The notes beneath the pieces were generated by a model that did no database searches, had not been told where the DNA came from, and saw only the letters and a program-made list of their open reading frames with translations. Shown here in pieces: positions 1 through 58,124 of a stretch of DNA of 64,000 bases. The position numbers and the translations under genes were made by a program. Every line of letters begins with the position of its first letter. Position 1 is the stretch's first letter. Source of the stretch: Patescibacteria group bacterium (GTDB lineage Bacteria > Patescibacteriota > Minisyncoccia > Moranbacterales > UBA2206); assembly GCA_022711335.1 (NCBI GenBank), contig JAKLFF010000001.1, positions 131,016 to 195,015 of the forward strand, in the 5' to 3' direction.

Positions 1-1857
1 ATGCTGGCGTCTCTTTTTTATTCCCTAAATTTATATACTCTCTTTCTTTTTTCCGGCAATCTAAGCTTTTCGCACTATCCGACGCTCTACATTTTTGTTC
101 CGGCGCTAGTCGGGCTTTTCATAAAATTTTTGAAAACCGAAAAAATTGCATATGGGATTTTTTTTGTCTTCGTGCTTCTTTTGAGCTCATCTGGCTTTGG
201 CAATCCGGCTTTTGTCCTTTCTCTTTCTATTTTTTTGCTGCTGATTTTTATAGCCCTGTCTATTTCAGGTTCAGTTGCCGTTAAGAAATCGCTTTTGGCA
301 AAAATTGCTCTTATCGGGGCGCTTTCAATTTTGATAAATGCTTTTTGGCTTTTGCCTATTATTCCCCAGATGAGAAGCGGAGTAGCAGAGCTGCAAAATA
401 GCAGCGTTTTGGAATTTGGATACACTATCCGCCATACCGCCAGCCCGATATTAAATACAATAAGCATGGTTAACTTTTCCGGAGATTATTTTCCTGAAAA
501 TTTTCCTTATGAAAAATTGTATTTTTTGAAAAAAATAATTCTGGCTCTGTCATTTCTTCCTGCGCTTGTTGTTTTTGGCGGATTATTTTTTCTAAAATCC
601 TTTGAAAAAGAGCATAAAAAATATTTTTTGGCTCTTGGCGCGGTATCGGCAGTCGCAATACTGCTTATCGCGAGGGTCGTTCCGCCTTTTGAAATAGTTA
701 ACTATTATATTTTTCGCGTCTGGGGCATGGAAACATTGCGCGGATTCGATAAGGTGGCCATCTACTTTCCTTTTATTCTGGCTTCGATGCTGCTTATTAT
801 TCTAGCTCAGTTTAAAAATAAGAAATGGCTGGAAATTTTGATGGTCGTCATCCTGCTTCTGCCTCTGCCTTTTTATTTGGGAAAAATCCAGCAAAATATG
901 AGCTATCGTTTTTCCGGAGCCAGCCCCCAAAACAAGGATTTCAGAAAATCAAAGTTGAGTTTTTTGGTGAAAATTCCCAAAGAATATTATGGAATACGCG
1001 GAAAGATAAACAGCGGCGGCGAAAAAGCTTTTATCGCCACGCTTCCTTATACTTCCAGCGACGGGTCAGGCATTTCTAATTTTCCAAAATGGAAAATGTA
1101 TGGAGCAGACATAACGCGACACTTGTATAGCAAGACTCTCTTGCCGGCGAACGCTAGTTATTTTTCCGATTGGAATTTTGCCCGGACTTTTAATGAAGAT
1201 AATCTTTCCGACAATCAGTGGCTTATAAAACTTTTGGGCATGATGGATGCAAAATATATAATTTATCACAAAGATTCGCCTGAAGATTCTGTCTTAAATT
1301 CGCAGGAGAAAATGAAAAAACTGGAACGGCAGGGGCTGATAGAAAATCTGGAAGACAATGATTATTTTACCTTATATGAAATAAAAAAGGATTATATCAT
1401 TCCATATATATCATGGCAGAACGAAAATGTATCGATAGAATCTGATTTATCGAGAATCGGCGGAGAATTGGATAAAATAATTAATAATTCTCAAGCATCG
1501 GAATTTAAGGAATTGAATCCTAAAAAATTTGAAGTAAAAATTTCCAAGGATAATTTCCAAAACGGCGTGCTAATTTTGGCGGAAAAATTCGATTCAAATT
1601 GGAAGGCTTATCTTATCTCGAAAGATGGCAAAGAAAAAGAAATAGGGGAGCATATTTTAGCCAGAGGGTATGCCAATGGATGGATTGTGCATGAGGATGC
1701 GAAAAACAGTGGTACTGATCATATTCTGATTGAATATTATCCAACTCGATTGATGGCGAGAGGCTTATGGATAAGCGCGGCAACAGCTTTATTTTTATTG
1801 GTTTATTTGGTAGTATATTATTATGGCAGAAAGAAAATTGCTAAAAAAGCTTGTTAG
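1..1857 (+). CDS. Polytopic membrane protein, 5' partial (N-terminus lies outside the window). YfhO-like architecture: N-terminal TM bundle, large extracytoplasmic domain, C-terminal TM anchor
   Basis: The ORF is open from base 1. It has multiple hydrophobic helices, a long soluble C-terminal domain and a final TM segment (RGLWISAATALFLLVYLVVYY). It sits in a glycosylation context. The family assignment comes from architecture only. Confidence 0.4.
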   Translation: MLASLFYSLNLYTLFLFSGNLSFSHYPTLYIFVPALVGLFIKFLKTEKIAYGIFFVFVLLLSSSGFGNPAFVLSLSIFLLLIFIALSISGSVAVKKSLLAKIALIGALSILINAFWLLPIIPQMRSGVAELQNSSVLEFGYTIRHTASPILNTISMVNFSGDYFPENFPYEKLYFLKKIILALSFLPALVVFGGLFFLKSFEKEHKKYFLALGAVSAVAILLIARVVPPFEIVNYYIFRVWGMETLRGFDKVAIYFPFILASMLLIILAQFKNKKWLEILMVVILLLPLPFYLGKIQQNMSYRFSGASPQNKDFRKSKLSFLVKIPKEYYGIRGKINSGGEKAFIATLPYTSSDGSGISNFPKWKMYGADITRHLYSKTLLPANASYFSDWNFARTFNEDNLSDNQWLIKLLGMMDAKYIIYHKDSPEDSVLNSQEKMKKLERQGLIENLEDNDYFTLYEIKKDYIIPYISWQNENVSIESDLSRIGGELDKIINNSQASEFKELNPKKFEVKISKDNFQNGVLILAEKFDSNWKAYLISKDGKEKEIGEHILARGYANGWIVHEDAKNSGTDHILIEYYPTRLMARGLWISAATALFLLVYLVVYYYGRKKIAKKAC

Positions 1858-2191
1858 CAAGCCAGTTATAGACGGCGCCTTTGTGGCTATTGTCTTTGCT
1901 ATGGGATTTTTTTTGCATTGGAAAATATATGAAATTGCCCTTTTTGCTCTGTTTATTTGGATAATTCTCAATCCGATTTTGAGCCGATACCTAGCTTTTG
2001 GGGCGATTTTCTTTTTAATCCTAACGCCGCTGTTTCTTATCGGCGGGAAAAAAATAATTGCTGACCAGCTGGCCATTTTCGCCTACTATTTTCTCATTAT
2101 GGCAGTTATGATGGGAATTTATGAATTGTGGAAAGACAAGCCAGAATCTTCAGGCGCGATTAATAATTTTAACGATAAAATCAATGAATGA
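1823..2191 (+). CDS. Small 3-4 TM membrane protein immediately upstream of GT2 (possible GtrA-like partner); overlaps the upstream gene end
   Basis: It is a 122-aa hydrophobic ORF. Its 3' end runs into the GT2 start. A GtrA-like small protein paired with a GtrB-like GT2 is a known arrangement. No diagnostic motif was seen. Confidence 0.3.
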   Translation: MAERKLLKKLVSKPVIDGAFVAIVFAMGFFLHWKIYEIALFALFIWIILNPILSRYLAFGAIFFLILTPLFLIGGKKIIADQLAIFAYYFLIMAVMMGIYELWKDKPESSGAINNFNDKINE

Positions 2192-3122
2192 GAAACCTTA
2201 TTTGTCAGTCGTCGTTCCGCTATATAACGAAGAGGGGAATGTGAGAGAGCTCCATAAAAGAATAGCGGAAGCGTGCCGCCAGCTGGAAAAAAGTTTTGAA
2301 ATAATTTTTGTCGATGATGGCTCAGAGGATAAAACTATAAAAGAATGCCAGGGACTTTCCCCGCTTAAGCTGGTTGTGCTGCGAAAGCGTTTTGGCCAGA
2401 CGGCGGGCATGGACGCGGGAATAAAAGCGGCTGTGGGTGAAATAATAATCACTATGGATGGCGATTTGCAAAACGATCCGGCTGATATAAAATTGCTCCT
2501 TGAGGAAATGGATAAGGGCTATGACGTTGTTTCCGGCTGGCGGGCCAAAAGAAAAGATCCGATCATGAAAAAAGTGTTTTCGCGCACTGCCAATCTTCTC
2601 CGGAAAATTCTGATCCAGGATAATATTCATGATTCCGGCTGTTCTTTGAAGGCCTATAAGCGAGAATGTTTTCAGGAAGTGGATCTGTTTGGCGAAATGC
2701 ACCGCTTTATTCCGGCCATTTTGGAGCTTCAGGGATATAAGGTCGGAGAAGTTGTGGTCAACCATCATCCGCGAATTCACGGAAAAACCAAATATAACTG
2801 GAAAAGGGGAATAAAGGGTTTTGTGGATATGATCTCTGTTTGGTTTTGGCGAAAATACGCCAATCGCCCGCTCCATCTTTTTGGCGGATCGGGAATATTA
2901 ATCTTTATTCTGGGGTCGGCTATTCTTGTCTGGATGGCAGTAGAAAAAATAATATTTAACGCGTCACTTTCCGAAAAAATCTGGCCGATGATGGGCGTGT
3001 TTTTGGTTATGATCGGCATCCAGCTTTTTATTTTCGGACTCCTTGCTGATATTCTCATTAAGAATTATTACAAAGAAAGAAAGCAGATGAATTATTCAGT
3101 CAAAGAGGTGATAGAGCAGTAA
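2184..3122 (+). CDS. GT2-family polyprenol-phosphate glycosyltransferase (DPM1/GtrB/ArnC-like) with two C-terminal TM helices
   Basis: Start is at MNEKPYLSVVVPLYNEEGNV, in the same frame as the longer listed ORF. GT2 motifs are present: VVPLYNE, FVDDGS, DGDLQND. Hydrophobic C-terminal helices are typical of GtrB/ArnC. Confidence 0.85.
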   Translation: MNEKPYLSVVVPLYNEEGNVRELHKRIAEACRQLEKSFEIIFVDDGSEDKTIKECQGLSPLKLVVLRKRFGQTAGMDAGIKAAVGEIIITMDGDLQNDPADIKLLLEEMDKGYDVVSGWRAKRKDPIMKKVFSRTANLLRKILIQDNIHDSGCSLKAYKRECFQEVDLFGEMHRFIPAILELQGYKVGEVVVNHHPRIHGKTKYNWKRGIKGFVDMISVWFWRKYANRPLHLFGGSGILIFILGSAILVWMAVEKIIFNASLSEKIWPMMGVFLVMIGIQLFIFGLLADILIKNYYKERKQMNYSVKEVIEQ

Positions 3123-3135
3123 CTAACTAATTTTT

Positions 3136-3252
3136 TTACCTCCTCTCCCTTAGGGAGAGGATGCCCAAAGGGCAGGAGAGGGATAAAACATAAATTTTTC
3201 CATCATCCGGTCCCGCCAGGGCGGGACCACCTTCTCCCTAAGGGAGAAGGGG
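3136..3252. repeat. Composite palindromic intergenic element, copy 1 (hairpins CCTCTCCC-TTAG-GGAGAGG, GGTCCCGCC-AGGG-CGGGACC, CCTTCTCCC-TAAG-GGAGAAGG)
   Basis: Three GC-rich perfect hairpins sit in an AT-rich spacer between the GT2 stop and the ugd start. A reverse-complement arrangement of the same hairpins occurs at 43024-43132. Confidence 0.6.
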
Positions 3253-3264
3253 ATAATTTATTTT

Positions 3265-4572
3265 ATGAAAATTGCAATTATTGGCACTGGTTATGTCGGA
3301 CTCGTCAGCGGGACTTGTTTTTCCGAGTTTGGACACAACGTAGTCTGTGTTGACAAAGACGAGAAAAAAATCGAAGCCCTGAAAAACGGCCAGATCCCGA
3401 TTTATGAGCCGGGACTCGATGAATTGGTCAAAAGCAATGTGGAAGCCAACCGGCTTATTTTTACTCTTGACACGGCCTTTGCCATAAAAGACGCGGATGC
3501 AGTTTTCATCGCGGTCGGAACGCCGACTTCAAGGCGCGGAGACGGATACGCTGATCTCAGCTACGTTTACGCGGCAGCCAAAGAGTTGGCCGGCCATTTG
3601 AACGGATATACGGTAATTGTGGACAAAAGCACTGTTCCGGTCGGAACAGCCAGGCAGGTAAAAAGAATCATAAAGGGGACGAATCCCAAGGCTGATTTCG
3701 ACATGGCATCAAACCCTGAGTTTTTGCGCGAAGGGGCGGCAATCTCCGACTTTATGAAGCCGGATCGGGTAGTGGTTGGGGTGGAAAGCAAAAAAGCCGA
3801 AGAAGTCTTGAGGAATATATACAAGCCCTTGTATCTCATTGAAACGCCTATGGTGGTGACTAATTTGGAAACAGCGGAGCTGATCAAGTACGCCTCAAAT
3901 GCGTTTCTGGCGGTCAAAATAAGCTATATAAATGATATGGCCAATCTTTGCGAAAAAGTCGGCGCCGATATCGTGGCTTTGGCCAAAGGCATGGGGCTGG
4001 ATAACCGCATCGGATCGAAATTTTTGCATGCCGGACCGGGATACGGCGGCTCATGCTTTCCTAAAGACACGCTGGCTCTTTCCAAAACCGCCCAGGAACA
4101 CGGTGCGGGTCTTCGCCTCGTCGAGTCGGCCATTGAGATAAATTCCGCCCAAAAAGCGCGGATGGTGAAAAAAATCAGAGAGGCGCTAGGAGGCAGTGAA
4201 GCAGGAAAAACAATCGCGTGCCTCGGACTTACTTTTAAGCCGGAAACTGACGATATGCGCCAAGCTCAGTCGGTCGCTATTCTTCCGGCGCTTGTTGACA
4301 AAGGCGCCCGCGTTCGCGCGCATGATCCGCATGGCATGGCTGAAGCCAAAAAAATGATGCCGGAAGTTGAATACGCGGATGATGCTTATGGCGCCTGCAA
4401 AGACGCCGACGCAGTCATCCTTATGACGGAATGGAACGAATATAGGGCGCTTGATCTTGACCGCTTGGCTGAAACTATGAAAGGGAAAATATTTATCGAT
4501 CTTAGGAATGTCTACGAACCGGAAGTTTTGAGAGAAAAAGGTTTCCAATATTTTGGGGTGGGGAGGAATTGA
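3265..4572 (+). CDS. ugd: UDP-glucose 6-dehydrogenase (nucleotide-sugar dehydrogenase family)
   Basis: N-terminal Rossmann motif MKIAIIGTGYVGLV. Catalytic Cys region GGSCFPKDT. Full-length family architecture, 435 aa. Confidence 0.9.
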   Translation: MKIAIIGTGYVGLVSGTCFSEFGHNVVCVDKDEKKIEALKNGQIPIYEPGLDELVKSNVEANRLIFTLDTAFAIKDADAVFIAVGTPTSRRGDGYADLSYVYAAAKELAGHLNGYTVIVDKSTVPVGTARQVKRIIKGTNPKADFDMASNPEFLREGAAISDFMKPDRVVVGVESKKAEEVLRNIYKPLYLIETPMVVTNLETAELIKYASNAFLAVKISYINDMANLCEKVGADIVALAKGMGLDNRIGSKFLHAGPGYGGSCFPKDTLALSKTAQEHGAGLRLVESAIEINSAQKARMVKKIREALGGSEAGKTIACLGLTFKPETDDMRQAQSVAILPALVDKGARVRAHDPHGMAEAKKMMPEVEYADDAYGACKDADAVILMTEWNEYRALDLDRLAETMKGKIFIDLRNVYEPEVLREKGFQYFGVGRN

Positions 4573-4599
4573 CAGTTTAGTTTTTAAATATCGAAAAAA

Positions 4600-7440
4600 A
4601 TGAAAAAGGAAATTCTAAGCAAAAAAATAATTTTCCTAAATCTTTTCATATTCTTGTTTTTTGCTTTTTCCTTTAATCTTGTTCAGGCTTCCCAAAATAT
4701 TCCTGATATTTGCGAGTCGGGAATTGAAGAAAAATTCCAATTCCTTTGTGAAAAAGATCAGCTTCTCGATCCCCGGGAACTTTTTGGCTTTGAGGAAAAA
4801 AGCGATAATAAGGCAAAAAAAGAAAGCTTTGGCGTAATGGCGGTTTCAAGTATCGAAGGCAAATCGGATGGCAGCGATGAAATCATAATCGGCGGAAATG
4901 AAGAATGGAATGAAAATAAAGTTTTTGACCATAAAATAATTACGATCGAACCGGGAGCCCAGCTGGAAATCAAAGCGGGCGTGACAATTACCCTTAAGGA
5001 TTCAATAATTAATGTTGAAGGGAAATTTATCACCAGTGGAACCAAAGAAAAAACGGTTATCATTAAATCATCCGGAGAAGAAAGCGATAGCGGATTCTCG
5101 ATCATTTCCGATTTGGACGATAAAGATGGCCAGATAAATGAAATACTGATGAAAAATACCGATATAAGCGGCAACAATAACGTATTGGGAGCTGTCATAA
5201 CTAAAAAGACCAAGCTTGATATGGAAGAATGCAGTATCCATGACAATGTGATTGGGGTAGTGATGGCGGAAAATGACTCCAATGAAAAGAAAGTCAATCG
5301 TTCTAAATTTTATGGCAACCAGATTGACGCGGTGAGCTATTACGAACTGGGCGGAGAAACTCTGGCTCCGGATTTCCGGTATAACTGGTGGGGAGAAAAC
5401 AGTTCAAAAATAGAGCAATATTGTAATGACGAATATGGATGTATTGCGTATCATGATAAAATTTTTGGACTTATCAATATAAGGCCTTGGTTTGTTTCGG
5501 AGGATTTTTTCGATCCAGTAGTGATTGTGCCGGGGATTATGGGGTCGGAAGAAAAAGATGGAGCTTGGAAAATAGATCCGGTTTATCATATTTATGATGA
5601 TCTTTATAATGAATTTATAGAAGAAGGTTTCGGTCCGGAAAAAAATTTGTTTACTTTTCCTTATGAGTGGCGAAATAGCAACCGAGATAACGCGCTCTTG
5701 CTTCGGGATAAGATTGCAGAAATTAAACAAGCCACTGGTCTTCCAAAAGTTGACGTTGTAGCACATTCCATGGGCGGTCTTCTGGCAAGAGAATATATTG
5801 AATCAGATTATTACCAGGATGATGTTAGTCAGTTGATTACGCTGGGAACGCCGCAAAACGGCGCTCCGGAGGCTTACATAAAATGGGAAGCAGGGGAATT
5901 TACCTTTTCTTTTGTAGATATGTATCTTAAACACAAATTTTCTCAGGAAGCCGAAGAGAACGGATATGACGATATTTTTCACTATATCCGCCAAAGACCG
6001 ATGACTTCTGTTCAAGAACTTCTACCCAACTACAGTTATCTTTATGAAGCTCTTGAAGATGATATACAGAGAACTTATCCAAATAACTATCCAATCAATG
6101 AGTTTTTGGATAACCTTAATTCCGAAGAAAGAAAAGAAAAACTCAAAAAAGTTTTGCTTTATAAAATTGTCGGAAATGTAGAAGACGATGAAAGCACTAT
6201 TTCCAGTTTCAGCGTGTTGGATGGACATATGGGAGAATATTGGGAACATGGCTATCCTCAAGGCTTTGAAATTCCTATTGGTGATAGAGGTATAAAATGG
6301 AAAAGGGGAGACAGAACAGTTCCATTTGAATCAGCCAGGAGTGAGAACATTCCAGCAGAAGAATCGATTGAGATAAATGCAGCTCATCGCGAATTGCCGA
6401 CCGAAGCCCAGAAAAATGTTTTAGGAATTTTGACGGCAAAAAGTCCAGGAAAAGAAACGAGGCGCAATCCTATAAAAGATCTGCTTTTTATTTCAGTTTA
6501 TTCGCCAGTTGATATACAAATAGAGAATTCTGAAGGCAAAAAAGTGGGAAAAAATTTTGCAACTGGAAACGAGATAAATGAAATAGAAGACGCCTACTAT
6601 AGCGGAGCAGGCGCGCTGAATGAGTTTCTGACCATTCCCATTTTCGGATCAGACGAAAAAGATTTCAAAATTATCACCCAAGGCACTGAAGAAGGCGTGT
6701 ATAAAATTGAGATATCCAGGATAACCGAAAGCGAAGGCTCCAGCGAAGCCAAAGAAATCAACGCGGCTATTTCAGGAACAGCCGTTCTCAATCAGGAAGA
6801 AAGCGTAGATTTGAAGGTTACTGAAAACGAAATAATAGTGGAATCAGACAAAACCCCTCCGGAAATTTCTATTGTTTCTCCCGAAGAAAACAAAACATAT
6901 CTCAACAGCGGAACCATCCCAGTGAATTATGGAATAAGCGATAATAAATCACCGAAAGAAAAAATAACCGATGAAGCATATCTGGACGAGGATATTTTAG
7001 AAAATAAAACCATAGACTTGGCTTTTTTGAATCTCGGAAAGCATAAAATAAAAATAATTGCCAAAGACGAAGCCGGAAACATCGGGCAGAAAGAAATCAG
7101 TTTCACAACAGAAACATCGGTGGATGCCATGATAAACAACACAGCTTATTACTACAGGCTGGGAATGATGAGAAAACAGGATAAAACTGTTTTGACAGCT
7201 CATCTTGAAATCATCAGGCAGCTTCAGGAAATGATAAAAATGATTGAAAAAAACAGATTTATGAAAAACAGAACCAAGGAAATGCTGGTTGCGAATCTCA
7301 AAAGACAAATCAATTTCTATCTGGACTGGCTATCATTCTACGCCAAAATGAGATCAAATCCGAATACGAAAAATGGCATTAACCCAGAAGTCGGGAAACT
7401 GCTAATTGAGAATTTCAATTTTTTGAAATATAATTTTTAA
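4600..7440 (+). CDS. Secreted multidomain protein: signal peptide, beta-helix-like N-terminal region, alpha/beta-hydrolase lipase/esterase-like domain (PGIMGS...VAHSMGGLLAREY), Ig-like/helical C-terminal region
   Basis: N-terminal signal peptide (FLFFAFSFNLVQASQ). Nucleophile-elbow pentapeptide GHSMG variant (AHSMGG) with an upstream oxyanion-like PGIMGS. Repetitive beta-strand-rich N-terminal part. 946 aa. Confidence 0.65.
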   Translation: MKKEILSKKIIFLNLFIFLFFAFSFNLVQASQNIPDICESGIEEKFQFLCEKDQLLDPRELFGFEEKSDNKAKKESFGVMAVSSIEGKSDGSDEIIIGGNEEWNENKVFDHKIITIEPGAQLEIKAGVTITLKDSIINVEGKFITSGTKEKTVIIKSSGEESDSGFSIISDLDDKDGQINEILMKNTDISGNNNVLGAVITKKTKLDMEECSIHDNVIGVVMAENDSNEKKVNRSKFYGNQIDAVSYYELGGETLAPDFRYNWWGENSSKIEQYCNDEYGCIAYHDKIFGLINIRPWFVSEDFFDPVVIVPGIMGSEEKDGAWKIDPVYHIYDDLYNEFIEEGFGPEKNLFTFPYEWRNSNRDNALLLRDKIAEIKQATGLPKVDVVAHSMGGLLAREYIESDYYQDDVSQLITLGTPQNGAPEAYIKWEAGEFTFSFVDMYLKHKFSQEAEENGYDDIFHYIRQRPMTSVQELLPNYSYLYEALEDDIQRTYPNNYPINEFLDNLNSEERKEKLKKVLLYKIVGNVEDDESTISSFSVLDGHMGEYWEHGYPQGFEIPIGDRGIKWKRGDRTVPFESARSENIPAEESIEINAAHRELPTEAQKNVLGILTAKSPGKETRRNPIKDLLFISVYSPVDIQIENSEGKKVGKNFATGNEINEIEDAYYSGAGALNEFLTIPIFGSDEKDFKIITQGTEEGVYKIEISRITESEGSSEAKEINAAISGTAVLNQEESVDLKVTENEIIVESDKTPPEISIVSPEENKTYLNSGTIPVNYGISDNKSPKEKITDEAYLDEDILENKTIDLAFLNLGKHKIKIIAKDEAGNIGQKEISFTTETSVDAMINNTAYYYRLGMMRKQDKTVLTAHLEIIRQLQEMIKMIEKNRFMKNRTKEMLVANLKRQINFYLDWLSFYAKMRSNPNTKNGINPEVGKLLIENFNFLKYNF

Positions 7441-7490
7441 TTTAAAACGCTTTTTCTTAAGAATTTAGGAAAAAGTGAAAAAACAAAAAT

Positions 7491-7769
7491 ATGTTTTCAA
7501 TGCCTGATTTGGATTTGCAAATCTCACTTTCTCTATTTGCAATCTCTTTTGTTGTTGGATTGATAACCTGGGCGATTTCCAGAAAGTGGTTCTTGGGATT
7601 GGTGGTTTTTTCTATTTTGGGAAATCTTAGTTTTTTGGGAAATATAGGTTCTTTTATGTTTAAATCATATGGGATAGAATGGCTTCAATATTTTTCCCTT
7701 TTTATCTGGCCGCTAATAAATATCTTTTTAATTATCAAATATCGAAAGCAGAGGAAAGGAAAAGCGTAA
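7491..7769 (+). CDS. Small 3-TM membrane protein, divergent copy 1 of a tandem triplicated family
   Basis: 92 aa. Same length class, TM topology and C-terminal basic tail (RKQRKGKA) as the next two genes. The upstream leader ...acaaaaatatgtttt... is shared. Confidence 0.55.
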   Translation: MFSMPDLDLQISLSLFAISFVVGLITWAISRKWFLGLVVFSILGNLSFLGNIGSFMFKSYGIEWLQYFSLFIWPLINIFLIIKYRKQRKGKA

Positions 7770-7779
7770 AAACAAAAGT

Positions 7780-8070
7780 ATGTTTTGGTCAAGTCCGAGT
7801 AGGGATTTAAATGTAATAATTTTTTTGGTAATTATTGCATTAATTATTTCAGTTGCTGTCTACTTTAAAACAAAGAAAAAAATATTAACATTATTTATTC
7901 TTTCTCTTCTAGGAAATTTAATTTTTTGGTCAAATTCAGGATCAACATTTTTTGACATCTATCATCTCAAGGGAGTTGTTAAATTTACACTCTGGTATTG
8001 GCCGTGGATAAATGTGGGACTCCTGGTTATTTTGCTGGTAAATTATTTTAGGAATAGGGGAAAAGCGTAA
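7780..8070 (+). CDS. Small 3-TM membrane protein, copy 2 of tandem family
   Basis: 96 aa, roughly 70% identical to copy 3 (MFWSS..RDLNVIIFLVI...VVKFTLWYWPWINVGLL...NYFRN.GK). It is preceded by the same aaaagcgtaaaaacaaaa leader. Confidence 0.7.
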   Translation: MFWSSPSRDLNVIIFLVIIALIISVAVYFKTKKKILTLFILSLLGNLIFWSNSGSTFFDIYHLKGVVKFTLWYWPWINVGLLVILLVNYFRNRGKA

Positions 8071-8080
8071 AAACAAAAAT

Positions 8081-8383
8081 ATGTTTTGGTCAAGCTCGAT
8101 CAGAGACTTAAATGTCATAATCTTTCTGGTTATTGTTGCAATGATTATTTCAATCTTTGTTTATTTTAAAACAAAAAATAAATTTGCTTCGCTGGTCATT
8201 TTCTCTATTTTGGGAAATTTAATTTTTTGGGATAATTCTGGATCGAGGTTACTTAATATACCTGATTTTAAATGGGTTGTGAAATTTACGCTTTGGTATT
8301 GGCCGTGGATAAATGTGGGACTTCTGGCTATTTTAGCGGTTAATTATTTTAGAAATAAAGGGAAAAATCAGAACTTAGGATAA
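8081..8383 (+). CDS. Small 3-TM membrane protein, copy 3 of tandem family
   Basis: 100 aa. The duplicated unit of about 300 bp includes the leader/RBS region. Confidence 0.7.
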   Translation: MFWSSSIRDLNVIIFLVIVAMIISIFVYFKTKNKFASLVIFSILGNLIFWDNSGSRLLNIPDFKWVVKFTLWYWPWINVGLLAILAVNYFRNKGKNQNLG

Positions 8384-8405
8384 TTGCGTAATTAATTACT
8401 TATGA

Positions 8406-8436
8406 AAAACAACCATGTTTCCGGGGTTGTTTTTGA
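8406..8436 (+). terminator. Rho-independent terminator after the tandem mini-gene array
   Basis: Hairpin AAAACAACC-N10-GGTTGTTTT followed by a T-run. Confidence 0.5.
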
Positions 8437-8491
8437 GTGTGTTTTATGCGACAATGGAGAAAGAAAATAATTTAAAAGTGATTTTGACATC

Positions 8492-9631
8492 ATGAAAGTT
8501 TTGTTTTTAAACTATGAATATCCGCCATTGGGCGGGGGAGCGGGGAACGCCGCTTCTTGTATTTTGCGGGAATTTTCGAAGATTCCTGATTTAGAAGTAG
8601 ATTTTGTGACTTCTTCGCATGACGAAGATTTTCATCTGGAGGAAATTGGAAGCGGCGTGAGAATTCACAAGCTTCCGATTGGAAAAAATCAGAAAAATCT
8701 TCATTTTCAGTCAAAAAAGGATCTCTTAGTTTATTCCTGGAAAGCCTATTGGTATTCCAAGAAACTGATAAGGCAAAATAAATATGATTTGAGCCATTCA
8801 TTTTTTTCTGTTCCTTGCGGTTTTTTGTCGCTGGTTTTTAAACGGAAATATAAAATTCCTTATGTTATTTCTCTTCGCGGAGCGGATGTGCCCGGATATT
8901 CGGAACGATTTTCTTTCCTTTACAAAATTTTGACGCCTCTTATCAAATTAATCTGGAAAAAATCCGGCGCGGTGGTTTCCAATTCGGAAGGGCTCCGAGA
9001 ATTGGCTTTGAAATCAAATCCAAAGCAGCCGATAGAAATAATCTGCAACGGAATCGACACGGAAAAATTCAAACCGGGGGAACCAAATAGGGAAAAATTC
9101 ATAATAACCCTGGGCGGAACGCGGGTGACGGCCAGAAAAGGAATAGCTTACCTCATTGAAACTGTTCGCATGCTGTCTCAGAAATATCCGAATGTATTTT
9201 TGAAAATTATAGGCGAAGGGGATGAAAAGAATGATCTCGAGAAGATGTCCCGAAAATTGGAAATTGGAAAAAAAGTCGAATTTTTGGGTCGGATTGAAAA
9301 CAAGGAAATGCCTTCCTATTATCAGGAAGCATCGGTTTTTGTTCTGCCGTCGCTGAACGAAGGCATGAGCAACGCGATGCTCGAAGCACTGGCATCAGGC
9401 CTTCCCATAATTGCGACCGACACCGGAGGAACAAAAGAGATTGTTAGGGACGGAAAAAACGGATTTATTATAAAAATGAAAGACAGCCAGGATATCGCGG
9501 ATAAAATAGAAATTTTGATAAAGGATGAAAATTTGCGCCGCAAAATGGGGGAAAACAGCCGTAAATATGCCCAGAGTATGAATTGGGAAAGCGTGGCAAA
9601 TAAATATTACGAGATTTATAAAAAGCAATGA
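8492..9631 (+). CDS. GT4-family glycosyltransferase
   Basis: N-terminal MKVLFLNYEYPPLGGGAGNA. C-terminal GT-B domain with EX7E-type region (SNAMLEALASGLPIIATD). Confidence 0.85.
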   Translation: MKVLFLNYEYPPLGGGAGNAASCILREFSKIPDLEVDFVTSSHDEDFHLEEIGSGVRIHKLPIGKNQKNLHFQSKKDLLVYSWKAYWYSKKLIRQNKYDLSHSFFSVPCGFLSLVFKRKYKIPYVISLRGADVPGYSERFSFLYKILTPLIKLIWKKSGAVVSNSEGLRELALKSNPKQPIEIICNGIDTEKFKPGEPNREKFIITLGGTRVTARKGIAYLIETVRMLSQKYPNVFLKIIGEGDEKNDLEKMSRKLEIGKKVEFLGRIENKEMPSYYQEASVFVLPSLNEGMSNAMLEALASGLPIIATDTGGTKEIVRDGKNGFIIKMKDSQDIADKIEILIKDENLRRKMGENSRKYAQSMNWESVANKYYEIYKKQ

Positions 9632-20488: not shown

Positions 20489-22288
20489 TTGATGAAAAAT
20501 AAAGCCCTTGATTTTTTTAGAAAAAGAAAAAATTTCCTCATTGTTTCTTTTGCTGTTATTTTTCTTATTGGCGTCTTTTTACGCGCCTATCATTTTTCTG
20601 ACTGGCTGCATTTTGAGCTGGATCAATCAAGAGATGCCAAGGTCATTGATTTGGCTGTTGAGGAAGGGCCGTCCAATTTGCCCCTTCTTGGGCCCAAAGC
20701 AGCCGGAACTTTCCTGCGTCTCGGGCCGGCTTTTTATTATTTCAAATATCTGAGTGCGCTGGTTTTTGGCAATACGCCTTCCGGGGTGGCAGTGATTATT
20801 ATGATTTTTGGAATTTTGGCTATCCCGGTTTTTTATTTATTCGTAAAAAGGTATTTTAGCGAGTCAATATCTTTGGGCCTAATGCTTATTTTTTCTGTTT
20901 CTCTTTTTCTGGTTATGTATTCAAGATTTTCCTGGAATCCTAATCCTTTGCCGCTGTTTACGCTTTTGACTTTTTATTTTCTGCTTCGGGCAGTGGATAC
21001 AAACGAAAGCGAAAAGAAAAGGGGAATTTGGCTGGTGGCTTTTTCAGTATCATTGGCGATTGCTACCCAGTTTCATTTTTTGGCTTTTGTGGGCGTGCCG
21101 GCCATATCTTTTCTGTTTCTAGTTGTTAAGAGGCCTAAAATAAAAATAAAATACTGGCTTTTTTCCATTGCGGCGATCGTTTTTCTCTATTTGCCGGCAA
21201 TAGTCAATGATTTTGAAACCGGCGGCGATAATATCGGCCAGTTTTTGGAAGTCGCCCGGGGGAAATCGGAAAAAAGCGAGCATGATATCGTTGAAAAGAT
21301 CGTAAAAAGCTACAATGAAAATTCCTTGGGATACGCAACAGTTTTATTTGGAATTGAAAAAAGGGAGCTTCCCCGGGTTATTTTTGAAAAAAATAAGCTG
21401 TTTAGTTTTATATGCGATGCGGATTGCAAAAGCGAGTTGGGGATGGGAATTTTTTCGCTTCTGTTTTTCACTTTGGGCGCGGTTTTGCTTGTCGCAAATG
21501 CCGTGAAAGAAAAAGATCCTAAAAGAAAAGATTTTTTAATCCTGGCATCTATCTGGTTCTTTGTTGTTTTGGGGCTTTATGTTCCCATAGCTTATAATAT
21601 TTCTCCCCGCTTTTTCCTTTTAGCGGCGGCTATTCCGTTTATCTTTTTGGGATTTGTGTTTGAATTTCTGGAGATTACCATAAAAAACAAAAAAATAAGT
21701 CCGATGTTAACAATAGTTCTTATTTTAGCTGCCAGCGGCTATAATCTTTGGAAAATAAATCAGCGCTTTTGGCAGTTGCAAAATGCTTCTACTCAATCTT
21801 TTAAAGTGGAAACAGACAGGATTCTCAAGGAAAAAACGAGAGTAACGCTAGAACAGCAAAATAAAATAATAAATTACATTTTATTAATACAAAAAAGCAA
21901 CGGCTATCCGGTTTATCTCAACAGCGATCCGGAATACCGAAGATCATTTCTTTACCATCTTGATAGAAATGATATTCCCAGAGATGACTTCAGAAATGCG
22001 ACAAATAGCGATAAAGTTTATGAACATGGAAATTATTTTTTGATTTACCCAACGTTTTCCAACTGGAAAAAAGATCTGGATAAATACGCAGGAAAATTCG
22101 ACCTTGCGAATCAGAAAGAATTTGGAACTCTGACGCTTTTTGAACTCAAGCCAAGGCTAGAGGCTGTCAACGCCGTAGAGCAGGATTTTTCAAAAGACAA
22201 GTCGAAAGGATCATCCGGAACGCCTAAAAGATTTAAGTGGGATGAAATATTTAATGAAAATAGTGATGATGAAAATACTAATGATTAG
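20489..22288 (+). CDS. GT-C ArnT/PMT-like membrane glycosyltransferase, paralog 4 (divergently transcribed)
   Basis: FLRAYHFSDWLHFELDQSRD and LGPKAAGTFLRLGPAFYY. Acidic C-terminal tail. Confidence 0.75.
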   Translation: MMKNKALDFFRKRKNFLIVSFAVIFLIGVFLRAYHFSDWLHFELDQSRDAKVIDLAVEEGPSNLPLLGPKAAGTFLRLGPAFYYFKYLSALVFGNTPSGVAVIIMIFGILAIPVFYLFVKRYFSESISLGLMLIFSVSLFLVMYSRFSWNPNPLPLFTLLTFYFLLRAVDTNESEKKRGIWLVAFSVSLAIATQFHFLAFVGVPAISFLFLVVKRPKIKIKYWLFSIAAIVFLYLPAIVNDFETGGDNIGQFLEVARGKSEKSEHDIVEKIVKSYNENSLGYATVLFGIEKRELPRVIFEKNKLFSFICDADCKSELGMGIFSLLFFTLGAVLLVANAVKEKDPKRKDFLILASIWFFVVLGLYVPIAYNISPRFFLLAAAIPFIFLGFVFEFLEITIKNKKISPMLTIVLILAASGYNLWKINQRFWQLQNASTQSFKVETDRILKEKTRVTLEQQNKIINYILLIQKSNGYPVYLNSDPEYRRSFLYHLDRNDIPRDDFRNATNSDKVYEHGNYFLIYPTFSNWKKDLDKYAGKFDLANQKEFGTLTLFELKPRLEAVNAVEQDFSKDKSKGSSGTPKRFKWDEIFNENSDDENTND

Positions 22289-22492
22289 TTTTTTTGAAAA
22301 AATAAAAAGACCGGGCGGTCTTGTGTGCGACTTGGGATAAGTATGAATGCGAGTTTCGCATTAGGAGTCCTTATCGACAGCCATATAGACTATCTGCCTC
22401 CCTAACCTATCCGGTTATCGCACACTGCCTCGGTCTTGTAATGTGCAACAATCCTATCATATTATTAAAATTTTGTCAATAGCCAACGGTAA

Positions 22493-23497
22493 TGTCCACA
22501 CACATTTGGCGGTTTTTCCAGAATAGCGATATTCTGGAAAATGAGTATCAATATGCCAAAAACAATTAAAGAAGAACGGCTAAGGTGGATTTTGCCTGTT
22601 ACCAGAAAGGAGGTAAGGTTAATCGATGTGACCAAGGTCTGCCCGCACAGTAAACGTAGTCTGGAAAGATGGGTAGCAGCCTACAAAGAGTACGGAGAGG
22701 AGGGATTAATCCCAAAATCAACCAGACCCAGAACAAACCCCAATGAAACACCGATAAGGATCAAGGAAAGAATTATCGAACTCAGAAAGGATAAAAAGAA
22801 ATGCGCCCTGAAACTGAAATGGCAGTTGGAAAAAGAAAACATTTTTATCCACAAAAATACCGTTCATAAAATCGTTAAAAGCGAGGGTTTGGTAAGGAAA
22901 TACAGAACCAGGAAATTAAAGTACAAATATATCAAAATTCCGTTAGCACCAGGCGAATTAGTGGAAATTGATGTTAAATATGTGCCGGAAACAGTGGGAA
23001 ACAAGCAGTATTATCAATTTACAGCCATCGACTGCGCTACCAGGTGGAGATATCTGAAAATCTATGATGATTATTCCAGTTTTAATTCCATAAGGTTTTT
23101 AAAAGAATTAATTGCTATCACTTCGTTTAGAATCAGAGCCATCAAGACAGACAATGGAAGTAATTTTACTAATCGATATACGGGCTATCTCAAGAGTTCT
23201 GACCCGATAAATCCCAGGCTTCATCCTCTTGATATTTTTTGTCAAAAATACAACATCATCCATTACCTGATTGATCCAGGAAAACCAGCTCAGAACGGTA
23301 AAGTGGAAAGAAGCCATCGCGAAGACCAGGAGAAATTCTATGAACGTGTCTCATTTAAAACATTAAGGGAGTTGGAAAAAAAGATAAAAATATGGAATGA
23401 TGAATACAACAATCTGGAACATTGTTCCTTAAATGGAAAAACACCAAATGAAATGTTAAAAATACTAACTATCTAATGCGACAAATGTCTGTGTACA
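22493..23497. mobile_element. IS481-family insertion sequence (approximate boundaries)
   Basis: Imperfect terminal inverted repeats TGTCCACACACATTTGGCG (22493-22511) and CGACAAATGTCTGTGTACA (23479-23497) match at 16 of 19 positions. They flank a single rve-type transposase gene. Length is about 1 kb, as for IS481. No clear target-site duplication was identified. Confidence 0.5.
22541..23476 (+). CDS. IS481-family DDE transposase (HTH + rve integrase core)
   Basis: Catalytic D...D...E spacing (AIDCATRW, KTDNGSNF, NGKVERSHRE). N-terminal HTH. Confidence 0.85.
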   Translation: MSINMPKTIKEERLRWILPVTRKEVRLIDVTKVCPHSKRSLERWVAAYKEYGEEGLIPKSTRPRTNPNETPIRIKERIIELRKDKKKCALKLKWQLEKENIFIHKNTVHKIVKSEGLVRKYRTRKLKYKYIKIPLAPGELVEIDVKYVPETVGNKQYYQFTAIDCATRWRYLKIYDDYSSFNSIRFLKELIAITSFRIRAIKTDNGSNFTNRYTGYLKSSDPINPRLHPLDIFCQKYNIIHYLIDPGKPAQNGKVERSHREDQEKFYERVSFKTLRELEKKIKIWNDEYNNLEHCSLNGKTPNEMLKILTI

Positions 23498-23585
23498 AAA
23501 CACTATTTATCTATTTTTTGGAAAAAGAAAAGAGGCTGTATCTCTAAAATCAGAGATACAGCCTATAAGGTCACAGGTGAAATGT

Positions 23586-24038
23586 CTACTTCTGGCGGAT
23601 GAAAACTTTTGGCCTCCCCCCGCTCGAAGTTACCTCCGAATAAGCAGCTTTTCCATTCAGTTTTGTTGCTGCTATCCAGGACCCAGAACAAATGAATGGT
23701 CCGTCATTTAAGTACATTTTTTTGACGGCGGCTATATCCGCAATCGAAAATTTTGGTCCTGAAAGCCATGGAGTTGGCACCTGCTTGTCGTCGCAAAGAA
23801 CCATTCGCTGTGTTTTGTCCCGATCAGGATGGTAAGAAATACCAATTTCCGGCACACCCTTCGAAAGAATATGCAATGTAACATCTTCCGCAGAGGTGTA
23901 GAAATTCCCTTTTGGACAAGTCATCGTTGCCACCGTCGTTGTTTGACTCTGTCCGTCCATTTCATTTTGGGCGAACGCTTGCGCGCTCAAACCTATAAAA
24001 AGAACTGCTGTCAGCACTACTGTGATACCCTTCATCAT
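23586..24038 (-). CDS. Secreted hypothetical protein (signal peptide ...LSAQAFAQ)
   Basis: 150-aa ORF with a cleavable-looking signal peptide and 3 Cys. GC noticeably above the genome background. Confidence 0.5.
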   Translation of the reverse strand: MMKGITVVLTAVLFIGLSAQAFAQNEMDGQSQTTTVATMTCPKGNFYTSAEDVTLHILSKGVPEIGISYHPDRDKTQRMVLCDDKQVPTPWLSGPKFSIADIAAVKKMYLNDGPFICSGSWIAATKLNGKAAYSEVTSSGGRPKVFIRQK

Positions 24039-24195
24039 CTTTCTCCTTAATAGTCTGCGTTTCTGTCATTGTGCCATCTATGCTATCTTCCGGTTTTTCA
24101 ACAACTGGCTAGCCTACTACATCAAAAAGATAATGTCAATAAGAAATACAAAGATAATTTAAAAACATGTATAAATTAGGTATGGTTTTAGTAAC

Positions 24196-24224
24196 TTGAC
24201 AAATTTTGATAAATAGTGTAGTAT
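24196..24224 (+). promoter_or_regulatory. Near-consensus sigma70-type promoter (TTGACA-17 nt-TAGTAT) upstream of the 24266 gene
   Basis: TTGACA at 24196-24201, a 17-nt spacer, TAGTAT at 24219-24224, about 40 nt upstream of the ATG. Confidence 0.35.
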
Positions 24225-24265
24225 GGACAGTTAACTTAGCAATTAAGAGATTTTAAGGCAATTTT

Positions 24266-24961
24266 ATGGCTCAAAATAAGGAAATTACGCTAAACTCAAT
24301 AACTCGAAACTGGCGGTTTATAGTCATAACCGTTATGCTTTTCGCTTCTCTGTCTTTTTTTGCGAGCACTATGATTACGCCGGAATATAAAAGCCAGGCG
24401 GAAATTCTTATACTCCAGAAAAATCTGGATATCGATCCTTATCGGGCCGCAAAGGCTTCGGAATATGCCGGAGAAGTTCTGGAAGGAGTTTCCGGATCTT
24501 CCGATTTTATGAACGGAATTCTGGAAAAAATCGGATCAAATGCCGGAAAGTTCGGTGAAAATCCGGAAAAGCAAATGGAAAACTGGAAAAAGGCAGTCAG
24601 TGTCACTCCTTTGGTCAACACCGGAATTGTAAAAATAACCGTACTTGATCCCAATAAAAGAGAAAATAGGAAGCTTATGGAAGGCGTTATGGCCGAGCTT
24701 CAGGAAAACGGCGTCGCCTATCATGGCAATGAAAACATTACGCTCAAAAAAATCGGCGGACCGGTATATTTTGAAAATCCGGCCTACCCGGTCATCTGGC
24801 TTAATGTTTTGGTTGCGGGAGCGGTTGGATTATTCGCTTCTATCGGGATGATTTTGCTGTTTGGACAAAATTTGGGAAGTTGGTTTACAAACAGATCAAA
24901 GATAAAATTTCAAAACGGAAATCTAAATCAGGCATTTTATCATTATCCGGAAGTGCGTTAA
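24266..24961 (+). CDS. Wzz/PCP-like polysaccharide chain-length-determinant-type protein (N- and C-terminal TM helices flanking an extracytoplasmic domain)
   Basis: Topology TM1 (FIVITVMLFASLSFF), soluble middle, TM2 (VIWLNVLVAGAVGLFASIGMILLF). Assigned by architecture only. Confidence 0.45.
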   Translation: MAQNKEITLNSITRNWRFIVITVMLFASLSFFASTMITPEYKSQAEILILQKNLDIDPYRAAKASEYAGEVLEGVSGSSDFMNGILEKIGSNAGKFGENPEKQMENWKKAVSVTPLVNTGIVKITVLDPNKRENRKLMEGVMAELQENGVAYHGNENITLKKIGGPVYFENPAYPVIWLNVLVAGAVGLFASIGMILLFGQNLGSWFTNRSKIKFQNGNLNQAFYHYPEVR

Positions 24962-24979
24962 AAAATTTGCTTTTCTTGA

Positions 24980-25006
24980 GGTTGCGTAATTGAAAATTAC
25001 GCAACC
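24980..25006 (+). terminator. Perfect 12-bp stem hairpin (GGTTGCGTAATT-GAA-AATTACGCAACC) 19 nt after the stop codon; terminator or attenuator candidate (no T-tract)
   Basis: The palindrome is read directly from the sequence. Confidence 0.35.
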
Positions 25007-25105
25007 GAAAAGAAGCGCAATTCAAGCTTCGAAGATAAAGCTACTGGCGGGCGTTCCGTCGGAGCTATTATCCAAAAACTCTCAAGGCTAAAAGGAGAAA
25101 AAGCC

Positions 25106-25459
25106 ATGAGAAAGTTGTTCTTTATTATTTTGGCAGTTGTCGGTATTTTGGTGGGCTTGAGCACTTCGGTGTTCGCCCAGGACTGTGTCGGGAGTAATCC
25201 CAACTGGACTATGATTGGTTCGCCAACTGTATTGGCTAATGGAGTCGTATTGATTCATGGTACGAATCCCCGCGTGTCCGACTGTCGAATTGAAGGAAAA
25301 TGGTTTTCCCCAAAAGGTGGCCAGCGACAGGTGGTGTTGACAAACTGCGAAGGCGTAGTGGATGTCGATGCCAGGGTCAATGCGGCCATTGAATATGCCG
25401 CACAGTTGACCGGCCCCGGTTCCTGCCAAGATCGAAACTGCGAAAGAAAAAACTTTTAA
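25106..25459 (+). CDS. Small secreted Cys-rich hypothetical protein (signal peptide ...LSTSVFAQ)
   Basis: 117 aa with 6 Cys in the mature part. AAGGAG RBS. GC-rich codon usage compared with the genome background. Confidence 0.55.
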   Translation: MRKLFFIILAVVGILVGLSTSVFAQDCVGSNPNWTMIGSPTVLANGVVLIHGTNPRVSDCRIEGKWFSPKGGQRQVVLTNCEGVVDVDARVNAAIEYAAQLTGPGSCQDRNCERKNF

Positions 25460-25734
25460 AGCAGTGCGACTTGGTAGCCAAGACCTCGTTTCCTATTCTT
25501 AATATGGCATATACATTAGTATCGCCAGATTAGAAGGACTCGGGGTCTTTTTTTTGAATATTAAGCTGTTTTATTTGTATAATAAGGCAGAAGCTTGCAA
25601 TTTTTTGATAAATATGATTAGGTTTAGATAATAAAGGAGGGGCGGTTCCCTAAAAATAAGCAGGCAAAAGCAGTCAGATACTGTTTGGGCCATTTTTTTT
25701 GTAATTTTTTCATGCCAACAAAGGAGGAAGTACC

Positions 25735-26409: not shown

Positions 26410-26430
26410 CCAATTCTGCCCCCAACCAAA

Positions 26431-26476
26431 AACCCCGATTCTTGTCTCAACGAGAGGATCGGGGTTTTGTTTATTT
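26431..26476 (+). terminator. Rho-independent terminator
   Basis: AACCCCGAT-N18-ATCGGGGTT followed by TTTTGTTTATTT. Confidence 0.6.
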
Positions 26477-26509
26477 ATATGGCAGAAGCAAGGTTGTACC
26501 TTGCTCCTT

Positions 26510-27028: not shown

Positions 27029-27118
27029 CGAGTTTTGTTTAGAATGTTAACTATGAGGAGCATAGTGCAACTATGCTCCTGCACTAGGTGCAACTATGCT
27101 CCTGCGCCTTTATATTTT
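27029..27118. repeat. REP-like palindromic repeats flanking the RAYT (AGGAGCATAGT-GCA-ACTATGCTCCT plus two direct GTGCAACTATGCTCCTGC units)
   Basis: An 11-bp perfect-stem hairpin and a duplicated 18-mer lie immediately 5' of the RAYT gene. Confidence 0.5.
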
Positions 27119-58012: not shown

Positions 58013-58124
58013 GTTTTTCTCTATAAATTACGAATAAGCTAGCGCTCTACGAACATACAAACTACGAATTGAATAATTCATATATTCGTAAAAATTTATA
58101 ATTCGTAGAGATTTCAGATATTTA

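Follow-up and report, generated by a model that had tools for sequence, protein, structure and literature searches.

A predicted Sec-exported lipase with a recombinant catalytic domain and type-matched small membrane proteins in Moranbacteria

We analysed a 64,000-nt stretch of a Patescibacteria genome (Moranbacterales; assembly GCA_022711335.1, contig JAKLFF010000001.1, positions 131,016 to 195,015; hereafter the window), in which a gene for a 946-amino acid (aa) hydrolase is followed by three genes for small membrane proteins of 92, 96 and 100 aa (mini-proteins 1, 2 and 3). An earlier note, made from the sequence by a model, had placed these four genes on one strand (the + strand) and proposed a secreted lipase followed by a tandem array in the manner of effector and immunity genes; its coordinates and lengths were exact. 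We find that hydrolases of this family and small membrane-protein genes are conserved neighbours across differing genomic contexts and that the small gene nearest the enzyme generally matches the type of its catalytic domain. In the window the catalytic domain, judged from identity profiles, is one that has been swapped by recombination between near-identical strains. The reading that we favour, and to which we give about an even chance, is that the genes encode a Sec-exported surface lipase, cognate membrane proteins with an immunity-like role and retained non-cognate ones.

The linkage was seen from both sides. A profile search with mini-protein subfamily A alone found six loci in species-representative genomes. 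All 14 mini-protein-seeded loci with enough flank (L001, L003, L005-L007, L009, L011-L017 and L099) had an LCAT/PGAP1 hydrolase adjoining on the same strand, so that the mini-proteins are tied to hydrolases rather than scattered, as the earlier note had expected. The mini-gene lies 3′ of the hydrolase in the window's clade and 5′ of it elsewhere. At eight of the nine upstream loci (L003, L005, L007, L009, L015, L016, L017 and L099) the small open reading frame (ORF) overlaps the start of the hydrolase by 14-23 nt, the overlap at L009 being ~90 nt with an uncertain hydrolase start; the exception is L014, where a gap separates two small genes from the hydrolase. The genes around the pair vary between loci (a glycosyltransferase cluster, gyrB, RecQ, type IV pilus PilB/PilC), and for this reason we regard the pair itself as the conserved unit.

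A hydrolase-seeded search returned 80 metagenomic loci, which were scanned with local hidden Markov models. Where both flanks were present, a small ORF with several transmembrane (TM) helices adjoined the hydrolase on the same strand at 40 of 48 loci, compared with 5 of 31 controls, i.e. other large ORFs of the same loci (Fisher p = 4e-9). Hydrolases scoring at least ~800 bits and with usable flank all adjoin a member of the mini-protein family. Those at 450-700 bits instead have a 'family 2' ORF (118-145 aa, 3-4 TM) that abuts or overlaps the stop codon (21 loci, falling within L032-L062), and more distant hydrolases (L066, L071, L084 and L095) are preceded 5′ by a 'family 3' ORF of 111-116 aa that starts MKK..KIWLWIFLAMF.IPEIL. 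Each of these small-TM families, of which there are at least three, goes with its own hydrolase clade. Since hhalign found no relationship among families 1, 2 and 3 (probability <3%), we treat them as analogous, not homologous.

Evidence for the catalytic swap comes from comparison with the sister-strain locus L001. DNA identity to L001 is 91.5% upstream, in an alignment that reaches into the hydrolase gene, and 93.2% downstream; the interior (~5480-8400) is 50-78% identical or unalignable. Within the protein, the first 300 residues have 83-100% identity to L001, with the β-helix at 94% against both L001 and L018 (the 'backbone' allele). Over aa ~310-660 the identity to L001 is 17-77% in 30-aa segments, mostly 37-60%, and aa 665-946 are again closest to L001 (~63-93%, mean ~70%). 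With the A-type enzyme of L011, identity is 63-97% in most 30-aa segments across aa ~316-585 and 37-73% beyond; the catalytic domain as a whole is 73% identical to L011 versus 48% to L001. The breakpoints, at about nt 5480 and 6580, fall at the boundary of the β-helix and catalytic domains and just inside the first β-sandwich.

The small genes follow the catalytic type. By clustering, small type c10 (subfamily A) is nearest the enzyme in 10/10 loci with A-type catalytic clusters, c13 (subfamily B) is nearest in 4/6 loci of the B-type cluster (L001, L010, L012 and L018; L015 and L073 carry other small types), and catalytic cluster 6 pairs with small type c11. Where there are several small genes, the matching one is proximal: hydrolase-A-B-B in the window, x-x-A-hydrolase in L020, hydrolase-A-x in L013 and hydrolase-c11-c11-x in L022. 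In the window the A mini-gene therefore adjoins an A-type catalytic domain, and the two distal B genes match the sister-strain allele. Arrays of two or three divergent mini-paralogues recur independently (the window, L011, L013, L014, L020, L022 and L037); the duplicated unit of L011 consists of the last ~110 nt of the hydrolase gene, the start-context motif described below and the mini-gene. At L001 a single B mini-gene is followed by ~6 kb of unrelated genes before the family 4 glycosyltransferase (GT4) gene, which makes the region after the hydrolase a strain-variable islet. Positions 8310-14452 of L001/L002, absent from the window, encode DUF3795, flavodoxin-like, Vut_1, TspO and AAA_14 proteins and three consecutive EcoRI_methylase fragments that look like a broken methylase.

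The mini-genes themselves have a different history from the recent triplication first proposed. Mini-protein 1 is ~34% identical to mini-proteins 2 and 3 and 57-78% identical to subfamily A proteins of other genomes; it is thus a member of a widespread subfamily and no decayed duplicate of its neighbours. Mini-proteins 2 and 3 are indeed paralogues, near the ~70% identity put forward in the note (73.7% in protein, 78% in DNA), and Tandem Repeats Finder reports them as a 301-bp unit in 2.0 copies (7758-8366, 78% matches, score 738). Their synonymous divergence is saturated (dS 1.37, dN 0.16, ω 0.12), so the duplication is old and both copies have been under purifying selection. Mini-protein 2 is 62.5% identical to the product of the lone small gene of L001.

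Hydropathy and the AlphaFold2 (AF2) model, a three-helix bundle with helices across residues 5-90 and a predicted local distance difference test score (pLDDT) of 92.6, both give the mini-proteins three TM helices. The predicted topology has the N-terminus outside, a basic loop 1 inside, the TM2-TM3 loop outside and a basic C-terminus inside. The family is marked by MF-x-S-x-P..DL at the N-terminus, by FS-x-L-x-N in TM2 and by WP-x-I-N in TM3. S41 and N77 do not vary, and N45, W73 and P74 hardly do. Divergence between mini-paralogues peaks in the predicted outward TM2-TM3 loop, which in the L011 paralogues is a recombinant patch (dS 1.05, versus 0.11-0.14 in the outermost segments). Among 1.84 billion representatives the family comprises 93 clusters at 50% identity, of 51-155 aa and mostly ~90-100 aa; all matches being at most 155 aa, none is fused to a hydrolase. 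The source names are all Moranbacteria or a generic 'hypothetical', bar one evident misannotation (P0030). Scans of Pfam, NCBIfam, PHROGs and PADLOC gave noise only, and there was no significant fold match in the PDB. We found no description of the hydrolase/mini-protein module in the literature searched, of which our coverage was incomplete; the searchable literature appears to describe neither the three small-TM families nor an obligatory pairing of these with a hydrolase.

On sequence evidence, the 946-aa protein was confirmed as a lipase-type serine α/β-hydrolase of the Lipase_2/LCAT/PGAP1 group, with a predicted activity, and is a new multidomain member of that group. The motifs VAHSMGGLLAREY and PGIMGS are both present in the ORF. 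Pfam matches at aa 305-452 all exceed the gathering scores: LCAT (2e-14, 54 bits, cut-off 21), Lipase_2 (3e-9, 37.1 bits, cut-off 20.3) and PGAP1 (4e-9, 36.9 bits, cut-off 24.3). The elbow, Asp and His are in the correct order, and an alignment of 81 homologues (36-70% identical) shows no variation at S390, D571 or H596, which completes the Ser-Asp-His set. In sequence, the PDB entries nearest to the enzyme are Lip_vut1 and B. subtilis LipA, both minimal lipases, followed by lysosomal phospholipase A2 (LPLA2) and LCAT. With the AF2 model (mean pLDDT 86), Foldseek matched BlEst2 lipase (2e-11), LCAT (6e-8), family I lipases and PhaZ7. The secreted-lipase assignment of the earlier note was thereby borne out, as was its β-helix, which is a strand ladder in the model; the corresponding regions of homologues match PF13229 and PF05048. 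The N-terminus has a basic n-region, a hydrophobic core of ~18 residues and the sequence VQA-SQ, from which we infer a Sec signal peptide and its cleavage site, again as previously suggested. LCAT and LPLA2 (PF02450) and Bacillus Lipase_2/LipA have in common with the window's enzyme the AHSMGG elbow, the PG-x-x-G-S motif, the Ser-Asp-His residues and the fold. However, the sequence match spans only ~110-150 residues around the nucleophile, and the window's enzyme adds the β-helix, two Ig-like domains and the helical bundle.

Under the reading that we favour, the product would be a surface enzyme of ~100 kDa composed of a signal peptide or anchor, tether, β-helix, hydrolase, two Ig-like domains and helical bundle. 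The β-helix probably binds a cell surface or a glycan, and the hydrolase would be expected to act at an interface on the ester-linked acyl chains that membrane lipids carry, either cleaving or transferring them. The likely target is another cell, host or competitor, because bacteria of the Candidate Phyla Radiation (CPR) are unable to synthesise lipids themselves. Lysolipids are enriched in these bacteria, which have no lipid synthesis, and a phospholipase A origin has been suggested for them (PMC7242380; PMC12455944); given this auxotrophy and enrichment, foreign membranes would be a plausible target. The mini-proteins would sit in the producer's cytoplasmic membrane, each specific to a type of catalytic domain, and would most likely protect the producer: at its own membrane, which is unshielded, they would bind or block the part of the matching lipase domain that faces the membrane. 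In this strain an A-type allele would have replaced the catalytic domain, with the A mini-gene adjoining the enzyme, and the two B-type mini-genes would have been retained under purifying selection as orphan immunity genes against the sibling allele. The substrate, the target cell, the physical binding and the protection are all steps that we infer. We call the pattern immunity-like because of the non-homologous small families, the proximal cognates, the catalytic swap, the recurrent arrays, the ω of 0.12 and the loop divergence. To this extent the effector- and immunity-like layout suggested by the earlier note was upheld (a proximal cognate, distal non-cognates, non-homologous families and a catalytic swap), immunity itself being the part that goes beyond the pattern; and neither of the outcomes that the note had named as contrary, an incomplete triad or structural protein and mini-proteins independent of hydrolases, was found.

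Several observations weigh against this reading. In Moranbacteria and Parcubacteria the hydrolase family forms >480 clusters at 90% identity, the gene has a constant position in the four closest relatives (family 2 glycosyltransferase (GT2)-UDP-glucose dehydrogenase (UGDH)-hydrolase-...-GT4), and the family has no association with dedicated toxin-secretion systems or phages; on these grounds the module resembles a core function more than it does a typical toxin. We found no orphan small genes distant from a hydrolase. To our knowledge, the known lipase immunity proteins are soluble or lipoproteins, and a TM2-TM3 loop of ~16 residues would offer little surface for inhibition. S41, N45, W73, P74 and N77 lie within or at the edge of predicted membrane helices, a placement that could point to an intramembrane activity and not simple binding. 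Conservation of the mini-protein family is on a par with that of the catalytic domain (57-73% versus 53-73%), and the family is not hypervariable. The type matching could come in part from shared descent and physical linkage, and the window is the one clear natural experiment.

The main alternative, which is possible although we would not expect it to prevail, makes the mini-proteins obligate partners of the enzyme: a membrane dock, an activator, or a channel- or scramblase-like acceptor of the released fatty acid or lysolipid (or a presenter of the acyl acceptor). The strict linkage and translational coupling would be natural for such partners, as would polar and aromatic residues (S41, N45, W73, P74 and N77) in TM2 and TM3 and a conservation similar to that of the catalytic domain; a widespread enzyme family with a fixed gene place in the closest relatives, in lipid-auxotrophic bacteria, also fits. 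Since the chimeric enzyme contains A-type and B-type segments, it would need both A and B partners, and the small types of the window (A and B) do mirror the segments of the mosaic enzyme. However, partners normally co-evolve by descent, and here at least three families without detectable homology hold the same position. Two or three long-diverged yet constrained paralogues per enzyme, having arisen repeatedly, would be unexpected for a one-to-one dock; in the arrays the proximal gene alone matches the catalytic type; and 8 of the 48 hydrolase loci have no small multi-TM neighbour.

Housekeeping remodelling of the envelope, with the enzyme serving, for example, as deacylase or acyltransferase of a glycolipid or lipoprotein that the cell itself makes through the adjoining glycosyltransferase cluster and the mini-proteins its accessory membrane subunits, strikes us as improbable. 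It draws on the position of the gene in the window, L001, L010, L012 and L018, between GT2/UDP-glucose dehydrogenase and GT4/flippase-like/PMT_2/YdjC genes, and on the Pfam name of PGAP1, a lipid-anchor deacylase. That glycosylation neighbourhood is not conserved, however, as the module also lies by gyrB, RecQ, type IV pilus genes and others, and with contexts that vary from locus to locus we rejected a general tie to the glycosylation genes next to it; nor would a catalytic swap between strains with 92% identical flanks, or arrays of non-cognate partners, be expected of a housekeeping enzyme. Still less credible, to the point that we give it hardly any weight, is that the mini-proteins are class I holin-like pore formers that release or regulate the enzyme, or are unrelated to it and merely syntenic. 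With three TM helices, a predicted N-out/C-in orientation, a very basic C-terminus and ~95 aa they do resemble class I holins, which have three TM helices, the same orientation and a charged C-terminus. But the enzyme has its own predicted signal peptide, the mini-proteins have conserved motifs and match the catalytic domain by type, and they lack both an endolysin or phage lysis cassette and a holin-family match. No PHROG match, holin families included, was obtained, and neither the hydrolase nor the mini-protein family was seen on viral contigs; on this basis we dropped the holin or phage-lysis idea that the earlier note had allowed. Chance synteny is excluded by linkage in differing genomic contexts.

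The surface lipase with immunity-like membrane proteins can be set beside several known systems. The Tle-Tli pairs of type VI secretion systems (T6SS), including the PGAP1-like Tle4 family, are lipase effectors with immunity proteins, and the Staphylococcus aureus type VII secretion system (T7SS) lipase TslA has tandem TilA immunity genes. Like the window, both have a GxSxG serine lipase-type enzyme beside a cognate small membrane or envelope protein, tandem extra or orphan paralogues, non-homologous partner families between enzyme subfamilies and a strain-variable effector. Unlike them, the window's enzyme would be exported by a predicted Sec signal peptide, and its family is widespread in CPR bacteria with a fixed gene place. 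The window's partners also differ from those of Tle in being 3-TM integral membrane proteins, not periplasmic proteins or lipoproteins, and an immunity role for them would be by analogy. Among the genes annotated on either side of the operon, to ~5 kb upstream and 5.6 kb downstream, there were no T6SS, T7SS or contact-dependent inhibition (CDI) genes; the neighbours encode glycosyltransferases, UDP-glucose dehydrogenase, flippase-like, PMT_2 and YdjC proteins and a phosphoesterase.

Polymorphic toxin systems, reportedly treated by Zhang et al. in 2012, resemble the window in a conserved presentation region (here the β-helix) joined to a swapped active domain, in a matching small gene that adjoins with non-matching ones kept distally and, in L011, in a duplicated 3′ gene fragment with its small gene. 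In contrast to these systems, the swapped module of the window is central, not C-terminal, and is an allele of the same fold, not an unrelated toxin domain; the small gene often lies 5′ of the enzyme and overlaps its start; and the hydrolase has no Rhs, CdiA, LXG or PT-type trafficking domains. The proposal in the earlier note that this is a canonical polymorphic-toxin or contact-dependent locus thus fails on the missing T6SS, T7SS and CDI genes within ~5 kb, on the synteny of the gene in its closest relatives and on the central place of the variable module.

Family I.1/I.2 lipases with their Lif/LipB foldase (LipA:LipB, PDB 9g8u) offer another co-encoded secreted lipase and membrane-anchored partner, with a similar lipase fold. 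The foldase Lif has ~300 aa, one TM helix and a large periplasmic domain. In contrast, the mini-proteins have 92-100 aa and three TM helices and are almost wholly membrane-embedded, which sets them apart from Lif. The immunity proteins of pore-forming colicins and bacteriocins are membrane-embedded, with 3-4 TM helices and ~100-180 aa. As small polytopic inner-membrane proteins that act type-specifically at the membrane they would be an apt analogy for the mini-proteins. However, their targets are pore-forming domains, not hydrolases, and we found no sequence or significant fold similarity between the two. In sum of family membership, the hydrolase/mini-protein module is not part of the Tle-Tli, Lif or holin families.

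The module bears on how CPR/Patescibacteria are supplied with membrane lipids and on the ways in which they harm or exploit partner cells. It is a concrete and widespread candidate for CPR lipid acquisition, an exported LCAT-like lipase family with a type-matched membrane partner, and it predicts cognate protection or activation, A/B specificity and determinants in loop 2. It also defines at least three uncharacterised families of small membrane proteins that have no Pfam, NCBIfam or PHROG model. Recombination of a domain cassette between strains with ~92% identical flanks points to diversifying or conflict-type selection in organisms usually deemed streamlined. If the immunity reading is true, effector-immunity logic reaches the Sec-exported enzymes of monoderm-like ultra-small bacteria. 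A broader and more speculative proposal, which we regard as rather doubtful, is that the module is a widespread Sec-dependent means of lipid piracy or antagonism in CPR bacteria: a tethered lipase would act on host or rival membranes, with unrelated families of polytopic immunity proteins, and catalytic cassette swaps together with the accumulation of immunity genes would set compatibility between sibling strains. Were this so, interbacterial effector-immunity systems would include a kind not recognised before, one that works without a specialised secretion machine, and the module would be a direct molecular handle on lipid acquisition by lipid-auxotrophic CPR bacteria.

The features of the region are collected in Table 1. 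The 'leader' that the earlier note assigned to each mini-gene, GGAAAAGCGTAAAAACAAAA[A/G]TATGTTTT, is present in three copies (7457-7497, 7746-7786 and 8047-8087). Ahead of mini-genes 2 and 3, the 5′ half of this motif consists of the last codons and the stop of the gene before (GKA*), and only 10 nt separate each stop between mini-genes from the next ATG. Because of this overlap and this gap, we take the motif to be a junction or translation-start context and not an independent promoter. Of the supposed ~300-bp duplicated unit with its own expression signals, the unit (301 bp) and the threefold motif therefore stand and the private signals do not, the genes being 10 nt apart. The 10-nt gaps and the single terminator-like hairpin suggest co-transcription of the four genes, and ~4600-8440 would be transcribed as a unit, in which there may be an internal start or a processing site.

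Two elements are candidates for such a site. The promoter-like site at the end of the hydrolase gene was the top match in a scan of 3100-8700, in which the total number of matches equalled the shuffle expectation; the equivalent sequence falls inside the segmental duplication of L011. It is a possible internal promoter for the mini-genes and is offered as a lead only. The hairpin between the hydrolase and mini-gene 1 has a ΔG of -12.9 kcal/mol (z = -5.8, RNA fold), with equivalents in L001, L010 and L012 that carry paired base changes.

Table 1. Features of the hydrolase and mini-gene region (window coordinates unless given as aa of the hydrolase)
Feature	Position	Strand	Details
Hydrolase gene	4600-7440	+	ORF, 946 aa; identical protein (P0043, 100% match) named 'alpha/beta fold hydrolase', Candidatus Moranbacteria, at NCBI
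Signal peptide or signal anchor, predicted Sec	4600-4689	+	aa 1-30, VQA-SQ; hydropathy, AF2 helix 2-24
Acidic disordered tether	4690-4869	+	aa 31-90, ~60 residues; AF2 pLDDT <50 for aa 33-90
Right-handed β-helix domain	4879-5499	+	aa 94-300; AF2 strand ladder, weak Pfam Beta_helix match
A-type recombinant segment in otherwise B-type gene	5480-6580	+	aa ~295-660; sliding identity
α/β-Hydrolase catalytic domain	5512-6444	+	aa 305-615
Oxyanion-type motif PGIMGS	aa 311-316	+	within catalytic domain
Nucleophile Ser390	5767-5769	+	elbow AHSMGG
Asp571	6310-6312	+	in GDRTVP
His596	6385-6387	+	in AAHRELP
Two β-sandwich (Ig-like) domains	6478-7113	+	aa 627-838; AF2; weak Big_7, Glucodextran_B matches
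C-terminal helical bundle	7120-7425	+	aa 841-942; AF2 helices 841-853, 859-884, 890-918, 929-942
Promoter-like site TTGAGA-17-TATAAT	7406-7434	+	11 of 12 match; within last hydrolase codons
RNA hairpin, 13 bp	7448-7477	+	between hydrolase stop and mini-gene 1; without following U-tract
Mini-protein 1 gene	7491-7769	+	92 aa, 3 TM, subfamily A (cluster c10)
Mini-protein 2 gene	7780-8070	+	96 aa, 3 TM, subfamily B (cluster c13)
Mini-protein 3 gene	8081-8383	+	100 aa, 3 TM, subfamily B; paralogue of mini-protein 2
Terminator-like hairpin AAAAACAACC...GGUUGUUUUU	8406-8433	+	z = -3.5; after mini-gene 3, before GT4 gene

At other loci, the surroundings of the pair include some further genes. Just 5′ of the mini-gene/hydrolase pair of L003 (5673-6035) is a bAvd/23S_rRNA_IVP four-helix-bundle gene; the bAvd family includes accessory proteins of diversity-generating retroelements, and there was no reverse transcriptase within the flank that was fetched. 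A RecQ-type helicase (DEAD/Helicase_C/RecQ_Zn_bind/HTH_40) adjoins the module in L011 (4098-5744) and L015 (2893-4500), two loci that are otherwise different; in L011 it lies between the two duplicated mini-genes. The 976- and 977-aa A-type hydrolases of L011 and L013 are preceded 5′ by a conserved protein of ~206 aa (163-783 and 2346-2969, respectively); it has a single TM helix and a long tail that is very acidic and rich in Cys. In L016 and L017 (1-10300) the module is within a type IV pilus cluster, with a two-component system and PilB/PilC-like genes upstream and a CarboxypepD_reg/SpaA-like protein and pilin-like N_methyl/PilX_N genes downstream; L016 starts with the end of a 5243-aa Peptidase_S74 protein.

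Elsewhere in the window, positions 1-3122 encode a polytopic membrane protein of >618 aa (no Pfam or NCBIfam match), a 122-aa membrane protein and an ArnC/PgfS-like GT2 polyprenol-phosphate glycosyltransferase. This trio resembles a GT-C/GtrA-like/GtrB-like surface-glycosylation set and is conserved in L001, L010 and L012 and beside the P0064 hydrolase. Within 22000-28000, the cumulative GC skew peaks and changes sign at ~24-26 kb; to the left of this point most long ORFs are on the + strand, and to the right nearly all are on the - strand. This may be a replication terminus or another strand-bias switch. The 64 kb have no tRNA genes, and a full-length bacterial class A RNase P RNA is encoded on the - strand at 58123-58461 (139 bits, E = 1e-42).

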